Virus record (IMG/VR): IMGVR_UViG_2648501841_000005
Strand: one strand, 5' to 3'
Length of the DNA stretch: 11,538 nucleotides
DNA from: a virus
Lineage: Duplodnaviria; Heunggongvirae; Uroviricota; Caudoviricetes
Part shown: piece by piece, positions 1 through 6,642 of the stretch
How positions within the stretch are numbered: position 1 is the first letter of the stretch
Layout of the letters: every line of letters begins with the position of its first letter
Program-made: the position numbers and the translations under genes
The notes under the pieces: model-generated
What the model saw: the letters and a program-made list of their open reading frames with translations, nothing else
Told to the model about the DNA's origin: nothing
The model's database searches: none

Positions 1-161
1 ATAATCAAAAACGATACACACCGGGGTTTACCGCGTTAACGGAGCGCGGTGTTGTCCCCTCATAGTCGCCAGTCCGGTGCGATGGTGGAAGAAACTGGAT
101 TTTGTTGCAAATGATAACCATTATCGTTTTTGCGGGTCCTCCTGGTGGGGTGGGCCTGAAC

Positions 162-181
162 ACGGGGCGGGCGGGCGCGGA
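162..181. other. Candidate cosN (cohesive-end nicking site) of a lambda-like cos
   Basis: GC-rich ACGGGGCGGGCGGGCGCGG lies about 200 bp upstream of the small terminase start, the same spacing as lambda cosN to Nu1 (about 190 bp). From memory, lambda reads ACGGGGCGGCGACCTCGCGGG at the cos junction, sharing the ACGGGGCGG core. Exact nick positions cannot be set from sequence alone. Confidence 0.35.
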
Positions 182-189
182 AAAAGGCG

Positions 190-345
190 CATTTTTGTGA
201 TTTTATCGTCATCATCATCATGATGGTAACTTGTTGTTTTTAATGCTGTTAGTATTAAAAAGATGATGATTGTGGTTGTTTTTTGTTCGACATCTTTATA
301 TGGCGGCATTTCTTTACAAAAAAACAGAGTCACTTCTGTTCTGCG
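190..345. promoter_or_regulatory. Candidate cosB (small-terminase and IHF binding region)
   Basis: AT-rich non-coding stretch between the candidate cosN and the small terminase gene. CGTCAT...TAACTTGTTGTTTTTAAT (about 207..245) resembles the lambda R3/I1 region (CGTCATAACTTAATGTTTTTATTT, recalled). An inverted repeat ATCATCATCAT (about 209..222) / AGATGATGATT (261..271) and direct TTGTTGTTTTT / GTGGTTGTTTTTT motifs are also present. Confidence 0.4.
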
Positions 346-365
346 GTTTATGTGGAGGGATGTAA

Positions 366-842
366 ATGGACGGCGAGCTGAAAAATATGAAGTTAAATAT
401 TAATCAACTGGCAGCCCTTTCAGGTCTGCACCGGCAGACTGTTGCCGCCAGAATGGCGGATGTTCCTCTTGCACCAGGCAGTAATGAAAAGAAAAAACTG
501 TATCTCCTGACGGATTTGATAACTTCGTTGCTGGAAAAACCACCATCTTCCGAAGATGAGGATATGGATCCTCACGCTCGTAAGGCATGGTATCAGTCCG
601 AGCGCGAGCGTCTTAAATTTCAGCATGAAACTGTTCAGCTTGTGCCAGTCAGTGATGTCAGGCGGTCCTTTTCTGTCGTGGTGAAAGCGATAGTTCAGGT
701 ACTGGAAACCTGGCCTGACCGGCTGGAGAGGGACAGGGGGTGGACCGCATCACAACTGAATGAAGTACAGATTGTGGTTGATGAGATCCGCGACACACTG
801 GAAAAGGCAGTCATTGACTGTTGTGATGAGGCCGATATGTGA
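366..842 (+). CDS. nu1: Terminase small subunit (lambda Nu1-like, N-terminal winged-helix DNA-binding domain)
   Basis: 158-aa ORF directly 5' of the large terminase gene. The N-terminus (MKLNINQLAALSGLHRQTVAARMADVPL) aligns with the lambda Nu1 N-terminus (MEVNKKQLADIFGASIRTIQNWQEQGMPV, recalled). GGAGGG at 355..360 sits 5 nt before ATG 366; ATG 387 is an alternative start. Its stop TGA (840..842) overlaps the GTG start of the next gene. Confidence 0.8.
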   Translation: MDGELKNMKLNINQLAALSGLHRQTVAARMADVPLAPGSNEKKKLYLLTDLITSLLEKPPSSEDEDMDPHARKAWYQSERERLKFQHETVQLVPVSDVRRSFSVVVKAIVQVLETWPDRLERDRGWTASQLNEVQIVVDEIRDTLEKAVIDCCDEADM

Positions 843-2962
843 ATCAGGTGAACGAGAGCCATAGCCGCGCATCCGATATCTGGCGCGAAGTGGCCTCGCT
901 GTTTCGCCCACCCAGCCGGTTACCAGTAGCGGAAGCCATCAGGCGTTATATGCGGGTTCCACGGGGAGCCAATACTTCCGGTCCGTGGGAGTCATCGCTG
1001 ACGCCCTATATGATTGACCCCATTAATACATTATCAGCCCGTGAATATGACGCGGTGGTGTTTGTGGGACCTGCGCGAACCGGGAAAACCGAAGGGCTGA
1101 TTGATGGCTGGATTGTGTACGGCATCATCTGTGATCCGGCGGATATGCTGGTGGTGCAGATGACTGAGACGAAGGCGCGTGAGCATTCCAGAACGCGTCT
1201 TTCCAGGACGTTTCGCCACAGTCCGGAGGTCAGCAAGCGCCTCAGTCCTTCCCGTAATGACAACAACGTCCACGATAAAATGTTTCTTGACGGCTCCTTC
1301 CTGAAGATTGGCTGGCCGTCGATCACCGTCTTTTCCTCTTCGGATTACCGTCGTGTGGCGCTGACGGATTATGACCGTTTCCCTGAAAACGTGGACGGGG
1401 AAGGGGATGCCTTCACGCTGGCCTCAAAGCGTACCACCACCTTTATGTCCTCGGGGATGACCCTGGTCGAGAGTTCACCGGGGCGGGATATCACCGATAC
1501 CAAATGGCGTTGTGGTGGCGCACATGAGGCACCGCCAACAACGGGGATCCTGTCACTGTATAACCGGGGAGACCGCCGCCGGTGGTACTGGCCGTGTCCG
1601 CACTGCGGGGAATATTTTCAGCCGGTGATGGATAACATGACCGGATACCGGAATAACCCGGATTTTGTGGCTGCCGGTCAGGCTGCCCGTCTGATGTGTC
1701 CGCATTGTCGCGGGCTGATTGCCCCTGAGCAGAAACGCGAACTGAATAACCAGGGGATCTGGCTTCGTGAAGGTGAACGGGCGGCGGCGGACGGCAGTAT
1801 CACCGGAACGCCACGAAACTCCCGGATTGCGTCATTTTGGATGGAGGGGCCAGCTGCGGCGTTTCAGACCTGGGAACAACTGATTTTTAAACTGCTGGCG
1901 GCAGAAGAAGAGTATGAGCGAACCGGCAGTGAAGAGACCCTGAAAGCGGTGGTGAACACCGATATCGGACGACCCTATCTGCCCCGTTCAGCCACGGAAC
2001 AGCGTAAAAGTGAACTGCTTGAACAGCGTGCCGAGCCGTTTCCCCGGCGATCTGTGCCGGATGGTGTGCGTTTTATTGAGGCAACGGTTGACGTACAGGG
2101 CGGTAAAAATCGCCGTTTTGTTGTGCAGATCACCGGATACGGAGAGCAGGGGGAACGCTGGATTGTTGATCGCTACAACATCCGGCATTCACTGCGCTGC
2201 AGTCCCAACGGTGAAAGTCTGCCGGTTGATCCGGCGGCATATCCGGAGGACTGGGATTTGTTGCTGACGGATGTGTTCCATAAAACATGGCCGCTGGCTT
2301 CTGATCCGGATGTGCGCATGCGTCTGATGGCCATGGCGGTGGATACGGGAGGGGAAGCCGGGGTGACAGATAACGCCTATCGTTTCTGGCGTCGTTGCCG
2401 GAGTGACGGACTGGGCAACAGGGTGTTTCTGTTCAAGGGGGATGGACTTCGCCGTGACAGGCTGATTAACCGAACCTTCCCGGATAATACCGGCAGAAGT
2501 GCCCGCCGTGCCAGAGCCAGTGGCGATGTCGCGCTGTGGCTGGTTCAGACGGATGCGTTTAAGGATCGTGTAAATAATGCCCTGTGGCGTGACACACCAG
2601 GGCCGAACTATATCCACTTTCCCGACTGGCTGGGGCGGTGGTTTTACGATGAGCTGACCTATGAAGAGCGCGGCAGTGACGGAAAATGGCGAAAACCGGG
2701 CAGGGGCGCTAACGAAGCGTTTGACCTGCTGGTTTATGCGGATGCGCTTGCCGTTCTGCATGGTTACGAAAAGATCCGCTGGCCCTCCGCACCGGACTGG
2801 GCACAGCGGGAAACGTGGCTCGTCTTCCCGCAGGAGCGTTCTGGTGAAACGGTATCCCCGGAACTGACGGCCGGGGCAGAAAAACGCCGTCGCCGGAAGA
2901 AAAAACTGTGGACGGAGCGTGCGGAAGATAATCCATGGATAACATCAGGAGGCTGGTTGTGA
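839..2962 (+). CDS. A: Terminase large subunit (lambda gpA family; ATPase/endonuclease)
   Basis: 707-aa ORF. The N-terminal LFRPP region matches the lambda gpA N-terminus (LRSLFRPEP). Walker A-like GPARTGKT at 1067..1090. Paired Cys motifs CPHCGEYF and CPHCRG parallel the lambda gpA CPHCGEE motif. GTG start at 839 overlaps the upstream stop (GTGA). Position after Nu1 and before W matches lambda. Confidence 0.95.
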   Translation: MNQVNESHSRASDIWREVASLFRPPSRLPVAEAIRRYMRVPRGANTSGPWESSLTPYMIDPINTLSAREYDAVVFVGPARTGKTEGLIDGWIVYGIICDPADMLVVQMTETKAREHSRTRLSRTFRHSPEVSKRLSPSRNDNNVHDKMFLDGSFLKIGWPSITVFSSSDYRRVALTDYDRFPENVDGEGDAFTLASKRTTTFMSSGMTLVESSPGRDITDTKWRCGGAHEAPPTTGILSLYNRGDRRRWYWPCPHCGEYFQPVMDNMTGYRNNPDFVAAGQAARLMCPHCRGLIAPEQKRELNNQGIWLREGERAAADGSITGTPRNSRIASFWMEGPAAAFQTWEQLIFKLLAAEEEYERTGSEETLKAVVNTDIGRPYLPRSATEQRKSELLEQRAEPFPRRSVPDGVRFIEATVDVQGGKNRRFVVQITGYGEQGERWIVDRYNIRHSLRCSPNGESLPVDPAAYPEDWDLLLTDVFHKTWPLASDPDVRMRLMAMAVDTGGEAGVTDNAYRFWRRCRSDGLGNRVFLFKGDGLRRDRLINRTFPDNTGRSARRARASGDVALWLVQTDAFKDRVNNALWRDTPGPNYIHFPDWLGRWFYDELTYEERGSDGKWRKPGRGANEAFDLLVYADALAVLHGYEKIRWPSAPDWAQRETWLVFPQERSGETVSPELTAGAEKRRRRKKKLWTERAEDNPWITSGGWL
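1147..1154 (+). other. Chi octamer 5'-GCTGGTGG-3' (RecBCD regulatory sequence) inside the large terminase gene
   Basis: Exact octamer read directly from the + strand; function depends on the host being a RecBCD/Chi(GCTGGTGG) organism. Confidence 0.5.
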
Positions 2963-3171
2963 GCACAGAAGAAGCCAGAGAAATGATACAGCGGTACCGT
3001 GAAGCGGAAATGGCCGTACTGGAGGGAAAGTCTGTCACCTTCAACGGGCAGCAACTGACGCTGGAAAGCCTTTCTCAGATCCGCGCCGGACGTCAGGAGT
3101 GGGAACGCAGGCTTGCCGCGATGGTGAGCCGCAGGCGGGGAAAACCGGGATTTAAACTGGCGAGGTTTTAA
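2959..3171 (+). CDS. W: Head-tail joining / head completion protein (lambda gpW family)
   Basis: Small ORF between terminase and portal. C-terminal RRRGKPGF matches lambda W RRRGPAGF, and STEEAREMIQ aligns with lambda W MTRQEELAAA (recalled). AGGAGG at 2947..2952 sits 6 nt before GTG 2959, which overlaps the terminase stop (GTGA). An in-frame ATG at 2935 (78 aa) is the longer alternative but lacks an RBS. Confidence 0.8.
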   Translation: MSTEEAREMIQRYREAEMAVLEGKSVTFNGQQLTLESLSQIRAGRQEWERRLAAMVSRRRGKPGFKLARF

Positions 3172-4673
3172 TGGCAATTATTGATGATGTGATCGGCGTG
3201 TTTTCCCCCGGGTGGAAAGCAGCCAGACTGCGTTCAAGGGCGTTAATCATGGCCTATGAGGCGGTGAAACCGACCCGGACACATAAAGCCCGGCGGGAAA
3301 ATCGCTCTGCTGATCAGCTCAGTAAATACGGTGCGGTTTCCCTGCGGGAGCAGGCCCGTTTTCTGGATATCAATCATGACCTGGTGATTGGTGTGTTTGA
3401 CAAGCTGGAAGAGCGGGTGATTGGTGCCAGGGGAATTATTGTGGAGCCTCAGCCATTACGAAAAAACGGGGAAATGGCGGCTGAGCTGGCTGCGGATATC
3501 CGCCGTTTGTGGGCTGAATGGTCCGTGAGTCCGGATGTGACAGGGCAGTATACCCGTCCTGTGCTTGAACGTTTACTGCTGCGGACCTGGCTGCGGGATG
3601 GTGAAGTGTTTGCGCAGATGGTCAGTGGTGCGGGAAACGGTCTGGAACGGACGGCGGGAGTGCCATTCTGGCTTGAGGCGATGGAGCCGGATTTTGTTCC
3701 CATGCGCACTGATGAATCCGCCGGACTGAATCAGGGGGTTTTTCTTGATGAGTGGGGAAGACCGAAAAAATATCTGGTTTATAAAAATTATCCGGTCAGC
3801 GGCCGGCAGAGTGATACGAAAGAAATCGCTGCCGGAAAAATGATCCACCTGAAGTTCACTCGTCGTCTGCATCAGACGCGAGGCTCATCCATGTTATCGG
3901 GGGTGCTGATGCGGATCAGTGCCCTTAAGGAGTATGAGGATGCGGAACTGACAGCGGCGCGTATTGCTGCGGCGCTGGGACTGTATATCCGTAAAGGTGA
4001 CGGACAGGACTATGAAGATCCGGGGAGCAAAGAGACCGAGCGGGAAGTCCATATCACCCCGGGTATTATTTATGACGATTTGCGCAAGGGCGAGGATATC
4101 GGCATGGTCAAATCTGACCGTCCCAATCCCAACCTTGAAACTTTCCGCAACGGCCAGTTGCGTGCAGTGGCAGCAGGCAGTCGTCTGAGTTTTTCCAGTG
4201 CGGCGCGTAACTATAACGGCACCTACAGCGCCCAGCGGCAGGAGTTGGTCGAGTCCACGGATGGTTACCTGATCCTGCAGGACTGTTTTATTGGCGCGGT
4301 AACCCGCCCGGTGTACCGGACATGGCTGAATATGGTGGTTGCGGCAGGTCTGCTGAAAATTCCGGCGGATGTGGAGATGAAAACGCTATATAACGCGACG
4401 TATTCCGGTCCGGTGATGCCGTGGATCGACCCGGTTAAGGAAGCTGAAGCCTGGAGAATTCAGATCCGGGGTGGTGCAGCGACAGAATCTGACTGGGTGC
4501 GTGCTGGTGGGCGCAATCCGGATGAGGTCAAACGTCGCCGCAAGGCTGAAATTGATGAAAACAGCAGACTGGGGCTGGTCTTTGATACTGACCCCGTCAA
4601 CGACAAAGGAGGCAACAGTGCCGGAACTGAACGACAGTATCAGCGCGACACCGAAAGCCAGCATGAAGAATAA
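3171..4673 (+). CDS. Portal protein (lambda B-position portal)
   Basis: 500-aa ORF in the portal position between W and the prohead protease; size is typical of lambda-family portals (lambda gpB is 533 aa). Its ATG overlaps the W stop (TAATG). Family assignment rests on synteny and size; I did not verify the alignment residue by residue. Confidence 0.85.
   Translation: MAIIDDVIGVFSPGWKAARLRSRALIMAYEAVKPTRTHKARRENRSADQLSKYGAVSLREQARFLDINHDLVIGVFDKLEERVIGARGIIVEPQPLRKNGEMAAELAADIRRLWAEWSVSPDVTGQYTRPVLERLLLRTWLRDGEVFAQMVSGAGNGLERTAGVPFWLEAMEPDFVPMRTDESAGLNQGVFLDEWGRPKKYLVYKNYPVSGRQSDTKEIAAGKMIHLKFTRRLHQTRGSSMLSGVLMRISALKEYEDAELTAARIAAALGLYIRKGDGQDYEDPGSKETEREVHITPGIIYDDLRKGEDIGMVKSDRPNPNLETFRNGQLRAVAAGSRLSFSSAARNYNGTYSAQRQELVESTDGYLILQDCFIGAVTRPVYRTWLNMVVAAGLLKIPADVEMKTLYNATYSGPVMPWIDPVKEAEAWRIQIRGGAATESDWVRAGGRNPDEVKRRRKAEIDENSRLGLVFDTDPVNDKGGNSAGTERQYQRDTESQHEE
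4503..4510 (+). other. Chi octamer 5'-GCTGGTGG-3' near the 3' end of the portal gene
   Basis: Exact octamer on the + strand, same orientation as the copy at 1147..1154. Confidence 0.5.
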
Positions 4674-6642
4674 ATCCTGGTTCAGGATGCAGGCTGGGGG
4701 GCCGGGTGACGCGGATATTTATATTTATGACGAGATTGGTTTCTGGGGAGTTACCGCGAAGCAGTTTGTCAGCGAACTGAATGCACTGGGTGATATCACC
4801 CACATTAATCTCCATATCAATTCACCGGGTGGCGATGTCTTTGAAGGCATCGCCATTTTTAATGCCCTGAAAAATCAGGGGGCGACCATTACCGTGTATG
4901 TGGATGGCGTTGCCGCCTCGATGGCATCTGTGATTGCGATGGCCGGTGATACGGTCATTATGCCGGAAAATGCCTTCATGATGATCCATAAGCCATGGGG
5001 ATTCAGTGGCGGGGATGCTGAGGATATGCGCAGTTATGCCGATTTGCTGGATAAAGTCGAATCGGTACTGTTGCCAGCCTATGCGCAGAAAACCGGAAAA
5101 ACCACCGATGAAATTGCCGCCATGCTGGCGGATGAAACCTGGATGTCCGGTGCCGAATGTCTGGCACACGGATTTGCTGACCAGGTGACACCCGCTGTTG
5201 AGGCAATGGCATGTATTCAGTCAAAACGTACAGAGGAATTTAAAAAGATGCCGGAATCCATCCGAAACATGATTACTCCGCCACGCAACAGTGCCCCGCG
5301 TGATACCACAGTGACAATCCCTGCACCGGCGGTAACAGAACCATCACCGGTACCGGCAGTGTCTGATGAGGCGACCATTCGCGCCCGCGTTATGGCAGAA
5401 CAGAAAGCCCACATGTCAGGCATTAACGATCTGTTTGCCATGTTCGGTGGTCGCTATCAGACGCTTCAGGCACAGTGCGTGGCTGATCCTGACTGTTCGC
5501 TGGAAATGGCCCGTGAACGACTGCTGAATGAAATGGGCAAGGAGTCCTCGCCGACCAACAAAAATACACCGGCCCATATTTATGCCGGAAACGGCAATTT
5601 TGTGGGGGACGGGATCCGCCAGGCGATGCTGGCCCGTGCCGGATTTGAAAATGCCGAGAAGGATAACGCCTATAACGGGATGACCCTGCGTGAATGGGCT
5701 CGCATGTCACTGACGGAGCGCGGTATTGGGGTGGCCAGTTATAACCCCATGCAGATGGTCGGGCTGGCGCTGACGCACAGCACCTCTGATTTTGGCAATA
5801 TTCTGCTGGATGTGTCGAACAAGGGGCTGATCCAGGGCTGGGAGGAATCAGAAGAAACCTTCCAGAAGTGGACCCGTAAGGGACGCCTGTCAGACTTCAA
5901 AACAGCGTATCGCGTGGGGATGGGCGGTTTTGGTTCTCTGCGCCAGGTTCGTGAGGGGGCGGAGTATAAATACATCACCACCTCAGATCGCAAGGAGACC
6001 ATTGCACTGGCCACTTACGGGGAGATTTTCTCCATCACCCGCCAGGCCATTATCAATGATGATCTGAATATGCTGGTGGACGTGCCGATGAAGATGGGGC
6101 GTGCGGCGAAGGCAACGATTGGTGACCTGGTCTACAAGGTGCTGACGGATAACCCGAAACTGTCCGACGGTAAGGCGCTGTTCCATGCCGATCACAAAAA
6201 TATTGCCACCGGGGGGATCTCCGTTTCCGGACTGGATGCGGCCCGTCAGATGATGCGCCTGCAGAAAGAAGGCGATCGTGCCCTGAATATCCGTCCGGCC
6301 TTTATGCTGGTACCGGTGGCACTGGAGACGGTGGCGAACCAGACCATCAAATCGGCCAGTGTGAAAGGGGCGGATGCAAACGCCGGTGTCATTAACCCTA
6401 TCCAGAACTTTGCTGAGGTGATTGCAGAAGCGCGTCTTGATGCGGCAGACCCGAAAACCTGGTATCTGGCGGCGGCACAGGGCACTGACACCATTGAAGT
6501 GGCCTGGCTGGATGGTGTGGACACGCCATACATTGATCAGCAGGAAGGTTTCACCACTGACGGCATTGCCACAAAAATCCGTATTGATGCCGGAGTGGCA
6601 CCACTTGACTGGCGCGGGCTGGTGCGTTCGTCGGTGGCCTGA
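4618..6642 (+). CDS. Prohead protease (ClpP/S49-like) - scaffold-like linker - major capsid protein fusion polyprotein
   Basis: Single long ORF. The N-terminal domain carries ClpP-type motifs: INSPGGDV, catalytic-Ser context GVAASMAS (Ser codon 4918..4920) and His context MMIHKPWG (His codon 4987..4989). The middle is Pro-rich and coiled-coil-like (about 5180..5580). The C-terminal roughly 350 aa is major-capsid-like by size and position. The track ORF begins at GTG 4471, but AAGGAGG (4606..4612) 5 nt before in-frame GTG 4618 is the best start; ATG 4663 is an alternative. The ORF overlaps the portal gene's 3' end. Confidence 0.85.
   Translation: MPELNDSISATPKASMKNKSWFRMQAGGPGDADIYIYDEIGFWGVTAKQFVSELNALGDITHINLHINSPGGDVFEGIAIFNALKNQGATITVYVDGVAASMASVIAMAGDTVIMPENAFMMIHKPWGFSGGDAEDMRSYADLLDKVESVLLPAYAQKTGKTTDEIAAMLADETWMSGAECLAHGFADQVTPAVEAMACIQSKRTEEFKKMPESIRNMITPPRNSAPRDTTVTIPAPAVTEPSPVPAVSDEATIRARVMAEQKAHMSGINDLFAMFGGRYQTLQAQCVADPDCSLEMARERLLNEMGKESSPTNKNTPAHIYAGNGNFVGDGIRQAMLARAGFENAEKDNAYNGMTLREWARMSLTERGIGVASYNPMQMVGLALTHSTSDFGNILLDVSNKGLIQGWEESEETFQKWTRKGRLSDFKTAYRVGMGGFGSLRQVREGAEYKYITTSDRKETIALATYGEIFSITRQAIINDDLNMLVDVPMKMGRAAKATIGDLVYKVLTDNPKLSDGKALFHADHKNIATGGISVSGLDAARQMMRLQKEGDRALNIRPAFMLVPVALETVANQTIKSASVKGADANAGVINPIQNFAEVIAEARLDAADPKTWYLAAAQGTDTIEVAWLDGVDTPYIDQQEGFTTDGIATKIRIDAGVAPLDWRGLVRSSVA

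Follow-up and report, generated by a model that had tools for sequence, protein, structure and literature searches.

Gene context and identity of the window

The window, by which we mean the whole stretch of 11,538 nucleotides analysed here, carries near its left end a small terminase gene (TerS; positions 366-842, plus strand), whose product matches Pfam DUF1441 (E = 3.8e-48), followed by a large terminase gene (TerL; 839-2962, plus strand) of the lambda gpA family, with strong matches to both Pfam GpA_ATPase (E = 1.8e-81) and GpA_nuclease (E = 6.2e-84). Pfam further assigns a lambda-family portal to positions 3171-4673 and a ClpP-protease/capsid fusion to positions 4471-6642; a fused protease/coat gene of the Gifsy-2 type has been mentioned previously (PMC12315714). 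In the records of relatives, the TerS homologue is labelled as terminase small subunit. Upstream of these genes, between positions 134 and 294, lies a series of short elements that stand in the order of the sub-sites of the lambda cos site.

Over the first 900 bases of the window, the only part compared in this way, identity was 99.7% with the Stx1 prophage VT1-Sakai (AP000400) and 96-99% with several Stx2 prophages; the window is a Shiga-toxin prophage of VT1-Sakai type from E. coli O157:H7. In VT1-Sakai, this region is found directly 3' of the lysis genes S, R, ant, and Rz and is followed by an unnamed gene encoding 158 amino acids, a gene annotated as 'terminase large subunit', and the portal gene. 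A search of 5426 complete E. coli genomes found an exact 69-mer of the window in 270, the majority of them O157:H7, and the sequence is thus real and lineage-associated rather than a sequencing error; the cos type as such was found in 541 of the 5426 genomes.

cosQ, cosN, and the length of the cohesive end

An earlier note, made from the DNA sequence alone, had placed a lambda-like cosN and cosB at positions 150-365. When window positions 100-400 were aligned with the circularised lambda cos region, the three best local matches were colinear and fell on cosQ, cosN, and I1; specifically, window positions 111-140 matched lambda -52 to -24, including the heptamer GGGTCCT, ACGGGGCGG at positions 162-170 matched lambda -3 to +6, and TAACTTGTTGTTTTTA at positions 227-242 matched lambda +74 to +89 in the I1 region. 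The best local score was 33, as compared to 19.3 +/- 2.3 in 1000 mononucleotide shuffles, one of which attained 33; the resemblance to lambda exceeds chance.

GGGTCCT, which we take to be the lambda cosQ heptamer, and for whose identity Wieczorek and Feiss in 2001 are reportedly the source, occurs once in the 11.5-kb window, at positions 134-140 on the plus strand, where this exact copy would by homology to lambda serve as the packaging termination signal. Of 80 IMG/VR relatives, 78 have the heptamer in exact form and two are truncated, and in the window it stands 24 bp from the predicted nick, as compared to 23 bp in lambda and 22-24 bp in the relatives; a conserved 7-bp element is thus found about two helical turns before the nick, and cosQ has been described as a highly conserved element of 7 bp (PMC4669245). 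The site accordingly begins further left than position 150, the bounds proposed earlier having left cosQ out. On the far side of cosQ, a stretch with the near-palindrome TGATAACCATTATC (111-133, plus strand) is, together with cosQ, identical to lambda 48450-48479 at 26 of 30 positions; this stretch is present in most relatives and is replaced in some by terminator-like hairpins that abut cosQ, and it is probably not essential to cos. The spacer between cosQ and cosN (CCTGGTGGGGTGGGCCTGAACA; 141-162, plus strand) is conserved, being kept across phages with a DUF1441 TerS as CCYGGTGGGGTGGCCTG, and its CCGGTG is common to lambda too.

The GC-rich element that the earlier note described about 200 bp before TerS corresponds to ACGGGGCGGGCGGGCGCGG at positions 162-180, the TerS reading frame starting, at position 366, 202 nt past the predicted left nick. 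Within the cosN nicking site (163-179, plus strand), ACG/GGGCGG (the slash marks the nick) is identical to lambda -3 to +6 at 9 of 9 positions, and we predict with good confidence a top-strand nick at 164/165. Beyond the common GGGCGG core, the cohesive end diverges from that of lambda, as the note had correctly observed, with cohesive-end positions 7-12 all differing; cosN is conserved on the left and variable on the right, the latter being a published pattern (PMC4669245).

The core between the conserved CACG and AAAAAGG is 16 bp long in the window, and 17 bp (12 nt plus CGCGG) in lambda, cdtI, mEp460, LLS, and Fels-1. Among 85 distinct IMG/VR contexts of close relatives, this core measured 15 bp in 55, 16 bp in 27, 17 bp in 2, and 12 bp in 1. 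The core of the window, GGGCGGGCGGGCGCGG, is the majority 15-bp form with one additional G and represents 8 of the 27 contexts with 16 bp, other 16-bp cores (GGGCGGGTCGGCGCGG, GGGCGGAGGGGCGCGG, and others) being found in several independent lineages. The CG dinucleotides that flank both nicks are highly conserved (PMC4669245). With a 12-nt stagger, the 15-bp form resembles lambda in having CG on both flanks and symmetry in 5 of 8 pairs; with the same stagger, the window has the left CG, GC as its right flank, and symmetry in 3 of 8 pairs. A stagger of 13 nt gives the window CG on both sides and 5 of 8 symmetric pairs, and a stagger of 11 nt gives it CG on both sides by homology of the right flank CGCGG.

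By the flank rule, the window fits a stagger of 13 or 11 nt better than one of 12 nt, and the bottom-strand nick is predicted at one of three positions, 11-13 nt to the right of the top-strand nick (i.e., 175/176, 176/177, or 177/178). If the stagger were 12 nt, homology would predict GGGCGGGCGGGC (165-176, plus strand) as the 5' cohesive end; the predicted end is 165-175 under a flank-homology model and 165-177 under a symmetry model. The overhang may therefore be 11, 12, or 13 nt in the form carried by the window, and a length of 12 nt is not a safe assumption. Overhangs of 7-12 nt have been described among lambda-like phages with gpA-type terminases (PMC9303873).

This published variation in overhang length, as well as the occurrence of other 16-bp cores in several independent lineages, which makes a core of 16 bp no isolated lesion, speaks against an alternative that we consider unlikely, namely that the window holds a cos-derived but impaired relic of the O157:H7 lineage in which the extra G hampers cutting by misplacing a nick or breaking a CG flank. 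Under this alternative, which is compatible with the lambda-type cos reading preferred here, packaging would depend on other prophages; it would account for the one G by which the window core exceeds the majority form, for the lower symmetry and missing right CG flank with a 12-nt stagger, and for the concentration of the exact form in O157:H7 genomes. The published behaviour of Sp15, the VT1-Sakai prophage, bears on both sides of the question: Sp15 shows morphogenesis defects and has been described as multiply defective, its packaging level is far below that of Sp5, and its marker was transferred into K-12 solely as Sp5 chimeras, but mitomycin C does induce Sp15 and its DNA then turns DNase-resistant, i.e., is packaged (PMC2669165). 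With the terminase genes and all sub-sites, including cosQ and cosB, intact, an impaired cos in the Sp15 copy is possible but not indicated.

A second suggestion, which we offer tentatively and at clearly less than even odds, is that co-circulating STEC prophages make cohesive ends of differing length (approximately 10-13 nt) and sequence, the end in O157:H7 being 11 or 13 nt long; it is based on the finding that TerL is 98-100% identical (window positions 843-2200) among prophages with cores of 15, 16, 17, and 12 bp. If true, end-joining and cross-packaging between co-resident Stx prophages would meet barriers of compatibility, and a gpA terminase would set both nicks by flank sequence, with no fixed 12-bp ruler.

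Between cosN and cosB, an A5-N6-T5 block (AAAAAGGCGCATTTTT; 181-196, plus strand) is near-invariant in the family alignment. This block, which may bend the DNA intrinsically or serve as a contact for terminase, forms the left edge of the exchanged specificity cassette described below.

cosB and its joint exchange with the predicted DNA-binding half of the small terminase

cosB was mapped in the window and in ten divergent relatives with TerS identities of 36%-97%, using as +1 the first G after CACG (window position 165); Fels-1 and Gifsy-2 among these relatives were read by eye from sequence and alignment rather than pattern-scanned. The R motif used, TCRNCAYC, was derived from these same sequences, and it is hence only as a post hoc statistic that 5 of its 19 matches in the 11.5-kb window fall within the 89 bp of positions 206-294. 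A predicted R3-like TerS site (TCGTCATCATCATC; 206-219, +42 to +55, plus strand) contains three overlapping matches to this motif, and homologous R3 motifs are found at +41 to +59 in 8 of the 10 relatives mapped; lambda R3 is located at +50 to +65 (PMC9026076). The next element, an IHF-like site equivalent to lambda I1 (AAACAACAAGTTA; 227-239, minus strand), has one mismatch to WATCAANNNNTTR, as compared to two mismatches to the IHF consensus in lambda's own I1. This site is one of four matches with at most one mismatch in the whole window, and zero-mismatch matches at the same distance were identified in L077, L062, L086, mEp460, and cdtI. Further right, a predicted R2-like site (TCATCATC; 262-269, +98 to +105, minus strand) is inverted and lies approximately 52 bp, centre to centre, from the R3-like site; an inverted R2 motif is found at +95 to +106 in 9 of 10 relatives and is absent from L055. 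Finally, a predicted R1-like site (TCGACATC; 287-294, +123 to +130, plus strand) is direct; the TGTTC just before it is invariant in the family alignment, and LLS and yong2 carry the same TTCGACATCTT in inverted orientation where R2 lies.

When scanned with TCRNCAYY and the IHF consensus, the window and most relatives share a map with a plus-strand motif at +41 to +59, a minus-strand IHF site at +61 to +76, a minus-strand motif at +95 to +106, and a plus-strand motif at +120 to +130. Gaps in this pattern scan include L077 (no TCRNCAYY match at the R3 position), L055 (no R2), and L059 (no R1); in yong2, no IHF-like match with at most one mismatch was found, and cdtI (TerS identity of 37.6%) shows the IHF-like site only, without TCRNCAYY motifs. 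At the sequence level, the window thus has the layout of a complex cosB (R3, IHF, inverted R2, R1), and the complex cosB sites of lambda, 21, phi80, and Gifsy-1 have been described with the same order of R3, I1, inverted R2, R1 (PMC9026076; PMC4669245). That the position and orientation of these sites are kept while the intervening sequence diverges is a stronger argument than motif statistics.

This map also indicates how to read the elements to which the earlier note had drawn attention, all of its quoted strings being present at, or within one base of, the places it gave. The I1-like segment (TAACTTGTTGTTTTTAAT, 227-244) is present and aligns with the lambda I1 region. CGTCAT (207-212), which the note had likened to the R3/I1 segment, is indeed common to lambda but stands in another register, inside the R3-like site here and between R3 and I1 in lambda. 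The note's inverted repeat (ATCATCATCAT at 211-221 and AGATGATGATT at 261-271) was recovered by a repeat finder with a perfect 9-nt core (ATCATCATC at 211-219 and GATGATGAT at 262-270). With regard to candidate small-terminase binding sites, the proposal is probably right for this inverted CAT/ATG repeat, which forms part of the TCRNCAYC motifs, but not for the direct repeats TTGTTGTTTTT (231-241) and the similar GTTGTTTTTTGTT (275-287); the repeat finder reported no direct-repeat family, and one copy coincides with the IHF-like site and the other with a conserved T-rich spacer before R1.

The small terminase itself does not belong to the Nu1 family: BLASTP gave no alignment between TerS and lambda Nu1, and Pfam assigns TerS to DUF1441, not to Phage_Nu1. 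With a TerS that lacks detectable sequence similarity to Nu1, the R sites are not those of lambda. PDB sequence searches with TerS and TerL gave nothing significant. An AlphaFold (AF2) model of TerS built on 32 homologues (mean pLDDT of 77.7) shows a strand at residues 9-11, helices at 12-19 and 23-32, a wing, a strand at 45-47, and a helix at 48-57, followed by three long helices. Foldseek comparison of this model with the PDB yielded no significant match (best E = 0.08), although MerR-type wHTH DNA-binding domains made up most of the highest-ranking entries (a qualitative enrichment), and Pfam HTH families of this class also match Nu1, though weakly; the predicted fold suggests that TerS likely has an N-terminal Nu1-like wHTH.

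Comparison with prophages that carry a 78%-identical TerS revealed a module swap. In these prophages, positions 197-650 are only 34-74% identical to the window, as compared to 98% identity across positions 134-196 (i.e., cosQ, cosN, and the A5/T5 block) and 99-100% identity across positions 651-2200 (the C-terminal part of TerS and TerL), except in one of the four prophages compared, L089, for which the latter figure is 95-100%. In the protein alignment with the same group, the C-terminal 62 residues of TerS are identical and the N-terminal 95 residues are 63% identical; the limits of the swap and the protein alignment thus define the exchanged specificity cassette (197-650, plus strand) as exactly cosB plus the N-terminal, DNA-binding half of TerS. 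The N-terminal type with the wing ...PGSNEKKKLY... pairs with the R core CATC, and the type with the wing ...GGHESNLKLY... pairs with the R core CACY. This module swap is the best evidence here that the N-terminal domain of TerS would read positions 197-300.

Both the motif map and the joint exchange with the DNA-binding half of TerS point to recognition by terminase, and we regard as very improbable the alternative that the AT-rich positions 197-365 are a transcriptional control region, such as a promoter, operator, or terminator, or a small-protein gene. A 'hypothetical protein' is called across the region in several RefSeq and GenBank records, and there are minus-strand ORFs at positions 121-333 and 60-221, but frame-breaking indels among close relatives fall within the stretch that these ORFs cross and rule out a coding reading over cosN; since core lengths differ by 1, 3, and 4 bp among close relatives, there is no conserved ORF across cosN. 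As to transcriptional control, promoter-like and terminator-like sites were no commoner than in shuffled sequences, no terminator was found, and an Rfam search as well as promoter and terminator scans of positions 1-1000 and 1-900 returned nothing.

Genome ends, packaging, and relation to known cos sites

A tblastn search with the small terminase retrieved 56 phage records, several of which are laid out from a genome end. The records of cdtI, Tritos, and LLS (TerS identities of 36-57%) begin at the GGGCGG of the homologous nick and finish with ...GGGTCCT(22 nt)CACG. The starts of the cdtI and Tritos records read GGGCGGGAGCGT/CGCGGAAAAAGG, and the LLS record starts with GGGCGGCGCGCT, annotated as a misc_feature '5' extended single-strand cohesive site'; the LLS end was explicitly drawn by its authors from similarity to lambda and mEp213, the cohesive end of mEp213/LLS being given as GGGCGGCGCGCT (PMC12315714). 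In the yong2 record, the break falls at the opposite side of the 12 nt; in mEp460 the junction is uninterrupted, and the independent assembly mEp460_4F5 breaks 4 nt from the predicted nick. An exact-pattern scan of IMG/VR returned 99 loci, all prophage-derived, none of which starts at the site. For Cr-LKS3, a more distant phage with a DUF1441 TerS and a gpA TerL, 9-nt 5' cohesive ends with lambda-like flanks have been measured (PMC9303873). PhageTerm data published for induced Stx phages concern a different cos type with 3' ends, and the Ahp2 paper names a DUF1441 TerS.

We interpret bases 134-294, with a probability of roughly 0.88, as the cos of a lambdoid Stx prophage, made up of cosQ, cosN, and cosB and read by the terminase encoded directly downstream; this reading is founded on the homology and conservation of the sequence, on the position of the site, on the module swap, and on where the records of relatives end. 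The earlier proposal of a lambda-like cosN and cosB upstream of the small terminase gene is thereby borne out by comparative evidence. Headful (pac) packaging, with the G-rich element a coincidental or ancestral resemblance, has next to no probability, given the strong match of TerL to both gpA domains, the association of gpA-type terminases with 5' cohesive ends (PMC12315714), the colinearity of cosQ, cosN, and I1 with lambda, the ends of relatives' records at the site, and the 5' cohesive ends measured in the related Cr-LKS3. As a cos, the element is an ordinary and expected feature, of a known kind and in the expected place, directly upstream of terS-terL with a gpA-family TerL. It belongs to the DUF1441-TerS subgroup of lambda-like phages, which combines a DUF1441 TerS with a gpA TerL, a lambda-family portal, and a ClpP-capsid fusion and shares the blocks GGGTCCT, CCGGTGGGGTGGCCTG, CACG/GGGCGG, and CGCGG, the A/T block, and the TCRNCAYY sites.

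The actual nick positions, the binding of TerS and IHF, and the efficiency of this copy of the site are what we infer from these comparisons, and the packaging mechanism proposed here is modelled on lambda. Dimers of the DUF1441-type TerS would bind the R3-like site (206-219) and the inverted R2-like site (262-269) across an IHF bend at positions 227-239, with the R1-like site (287-294) assisting TerS binding, and the bound TerS would anchor the gpA-type TerL on cosN. TerL would then cut the top strand at 164/165 and the bottom strand 11-13 nt rightward, such that the left genome end after cutting would be 5'-GGGCGGGCGG...; the terminase would remain on the cosB end, dock on the portal, and package rightwards until, at the next cos, cosQ (134-140) and cosN would trigger the terminating cut.

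By locating the genome ends and packaging signals of a widespread type of Stx prophage, these results help to orient prophage and virion assemblies, to spot spurious ORF calls across cos, and to predict which terminase can package which co-resident prophages or islands. They also offer a candidate recognition motif and a positional map for DUF1441 small terminases, for which no experimentally defined binding site was found in the literature searched, and they describe a natural swap of a cassette of cosB and the TerS DNA-binding domain that is analogous to lambda versus 21. That near-identical terminase modules differ in the length of their cosN core is, like the motif and the map, a minor addition, and the understanding of cos packaging is unchanged.

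Among known systems, the window is most readily set beside other phages with a DUF1441 TerS. Fels-1, Gifsy-2, mEp213/LLS, mEp460, and cdtI/Tritos share its TerS family (36-57% identity), its cosQ, spacer, CACG/GGGCGG, and A5/T5 block, and the positions of R3, I1, R2, and R1 (in cdtI, of the IHF-like site only), and Fels-1 in addition shares the arrangement (CAT)4 ... GATGATGAT. By contrast, the core in these phages is 17 bp long (the canonical 12 nt plus CGCGG), as compared to 15-16 bp in the lineage of the window, and the R core differs by subgroup, being CATC in the window, Fels-1, LLS, and yong2 and CACY in mEp460, Gifsy-2, and the group with 78%-identical TerS.

The cos of lambda likewise is located between lysis genes and terminase genes and shows the cosQ heptamer in exact form almost equally far from the nick (23 bp, as compared to 24 bp here), ACG/GGGCGG at the left nick, an IHF site (I1), with which the IHF-like site of the window aligns, flanked by an inverted pair of sites approximately 52 bp apart, and a third, direct site; both phages have a gpA-family TerL and a lambda-family portal, and TerS starts approximately 200 nt from the nick (191 nt in lambda). 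The window differs from lambda in all six right-half positions of the cohesive end, in a cosN core that is one bp shorter, in a cosB that is approximately 10 bp nearer to cosN, in the unrelated sequence of its R sites (TCRNCAYC, as compared to the CGTTTCC type of lambda), and in a TerS that is a DUF1441 protein without detectable sequence similarity to Nu1. Finally, the module swap parallels the packaging-specificity pair of lambda and 21 (PMC4669245): in both cases two packaging modules that are otherwise nearly identical have cosQ, cosN, and TerL in common and differ in cosB and in the DNA-binding domain of TerS, whereas the pair to which the window belongs involves the DUF1441 protein family, and its packaging specificity is a prediction from sequence.

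Exchange of cosB and the amino-terminal half of TerS

Window positions 197-650, which cover cosB (206-294) and the N-terminal half of the DUF1441 small terminase TerS, show only 34-74% identity to the corresponding segment of four prophages (L064, L065, L080, and L089), while both flanks, including the large terminase TerL, reach 98-100% in three of these prophages and drop to 95% in L089. On these alignments, segment 197-650 is a swapped cassette, and its divergence between near-identical flanks suggests that two packaging specificities share a single cosN and a single TerL.

Variation in cosN, cosQ, and predicted ends

The cosN core, defined as the segment bounded by the conserved CACG and AAAAAGG (165-180 in the window), varies in length across close relatives (loci L016-L177); among 85 distinct contexts, 55 have a core of 15 bp, 27 of 16 bp, two of 17 bp, and one of 12 bp. 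Several sequence variants also occur (e.g., GGGCGGGTCGGCGCGG and GGGCGGAGGGGCGCGG), and the window carries the majority form plus one G. At the cosQ position, the Salmonella relatives Fels-1 (L096) and Gifsy-2 (L097) have AGGTACT rather than GGGTCCT, which is at odds with the statement that there is no apparent natural cosQ variation; the predicted end of Gifsy-2 is GGTGGCTTCGGG. The break in the mEp460_4F5 assembly (L004/L005, LR595868.1) lies to the left of the predicted nick, at a distance of 4 nt. The assembly is also short of 3 nt (GGGCGGGAG-CGCGG) that the cohesive-end sequence has in the lambda-like phage mEp460 (L006, JQ182728.1). This may reflect an artefact of assembling physical ends. 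In JQ182728, ACG replaces the TerS ATG, and the annotated start lies further downstream. Two IMG/VR contigs of approximately 11-12 kb each (L156 and L167) contain the cosN-flank 20-mer twice, approximately 8.6 kb apart, and the presence of two copies in a single contig suggests tandem or adjacent prophage remnants of the same cos type.

Annotated reading frames at cos and in the capsid gene

Several RefSeq/GenBank records annotate a "hypothetical protein" over cosQ/cosN, at places homologous to window 121-333 (minus strand); examples are mEp460_059 and various RefSeq genomes of O157:H7. Frame-breaking indels among relatives suggest that these calls are spurious. The long ORF at 4471-6642, a Gifsy-2-type fused protease/coat gene, joins a major capsid domain to a protease domain of the ClpP type. 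Its listed coordinates run across the end of the portal ORF at 4673, so the true start probably lies downstream of 4471.

The boundary upstream of cosQ

In approximately 95 other Stx phage records, similarity to the window is confined to 1-110 or 1-140 (92-93% identity) and is lost beyond, a pattern that places a mosaic boundary, as read from these alignments, at the junction of the lysis and packaging modules just left of cosQ. In some relatives, a GC-rich hairpin with a T-run, which resembles a terminator, lies 2-9 nt from cosQ in place of a near-palindrome, TGATAACCATTATC, that the window carries upstream of cosQ within 111-133. This near-palindrome is common to lambda, where its counterpart is GATAATCATTATC.
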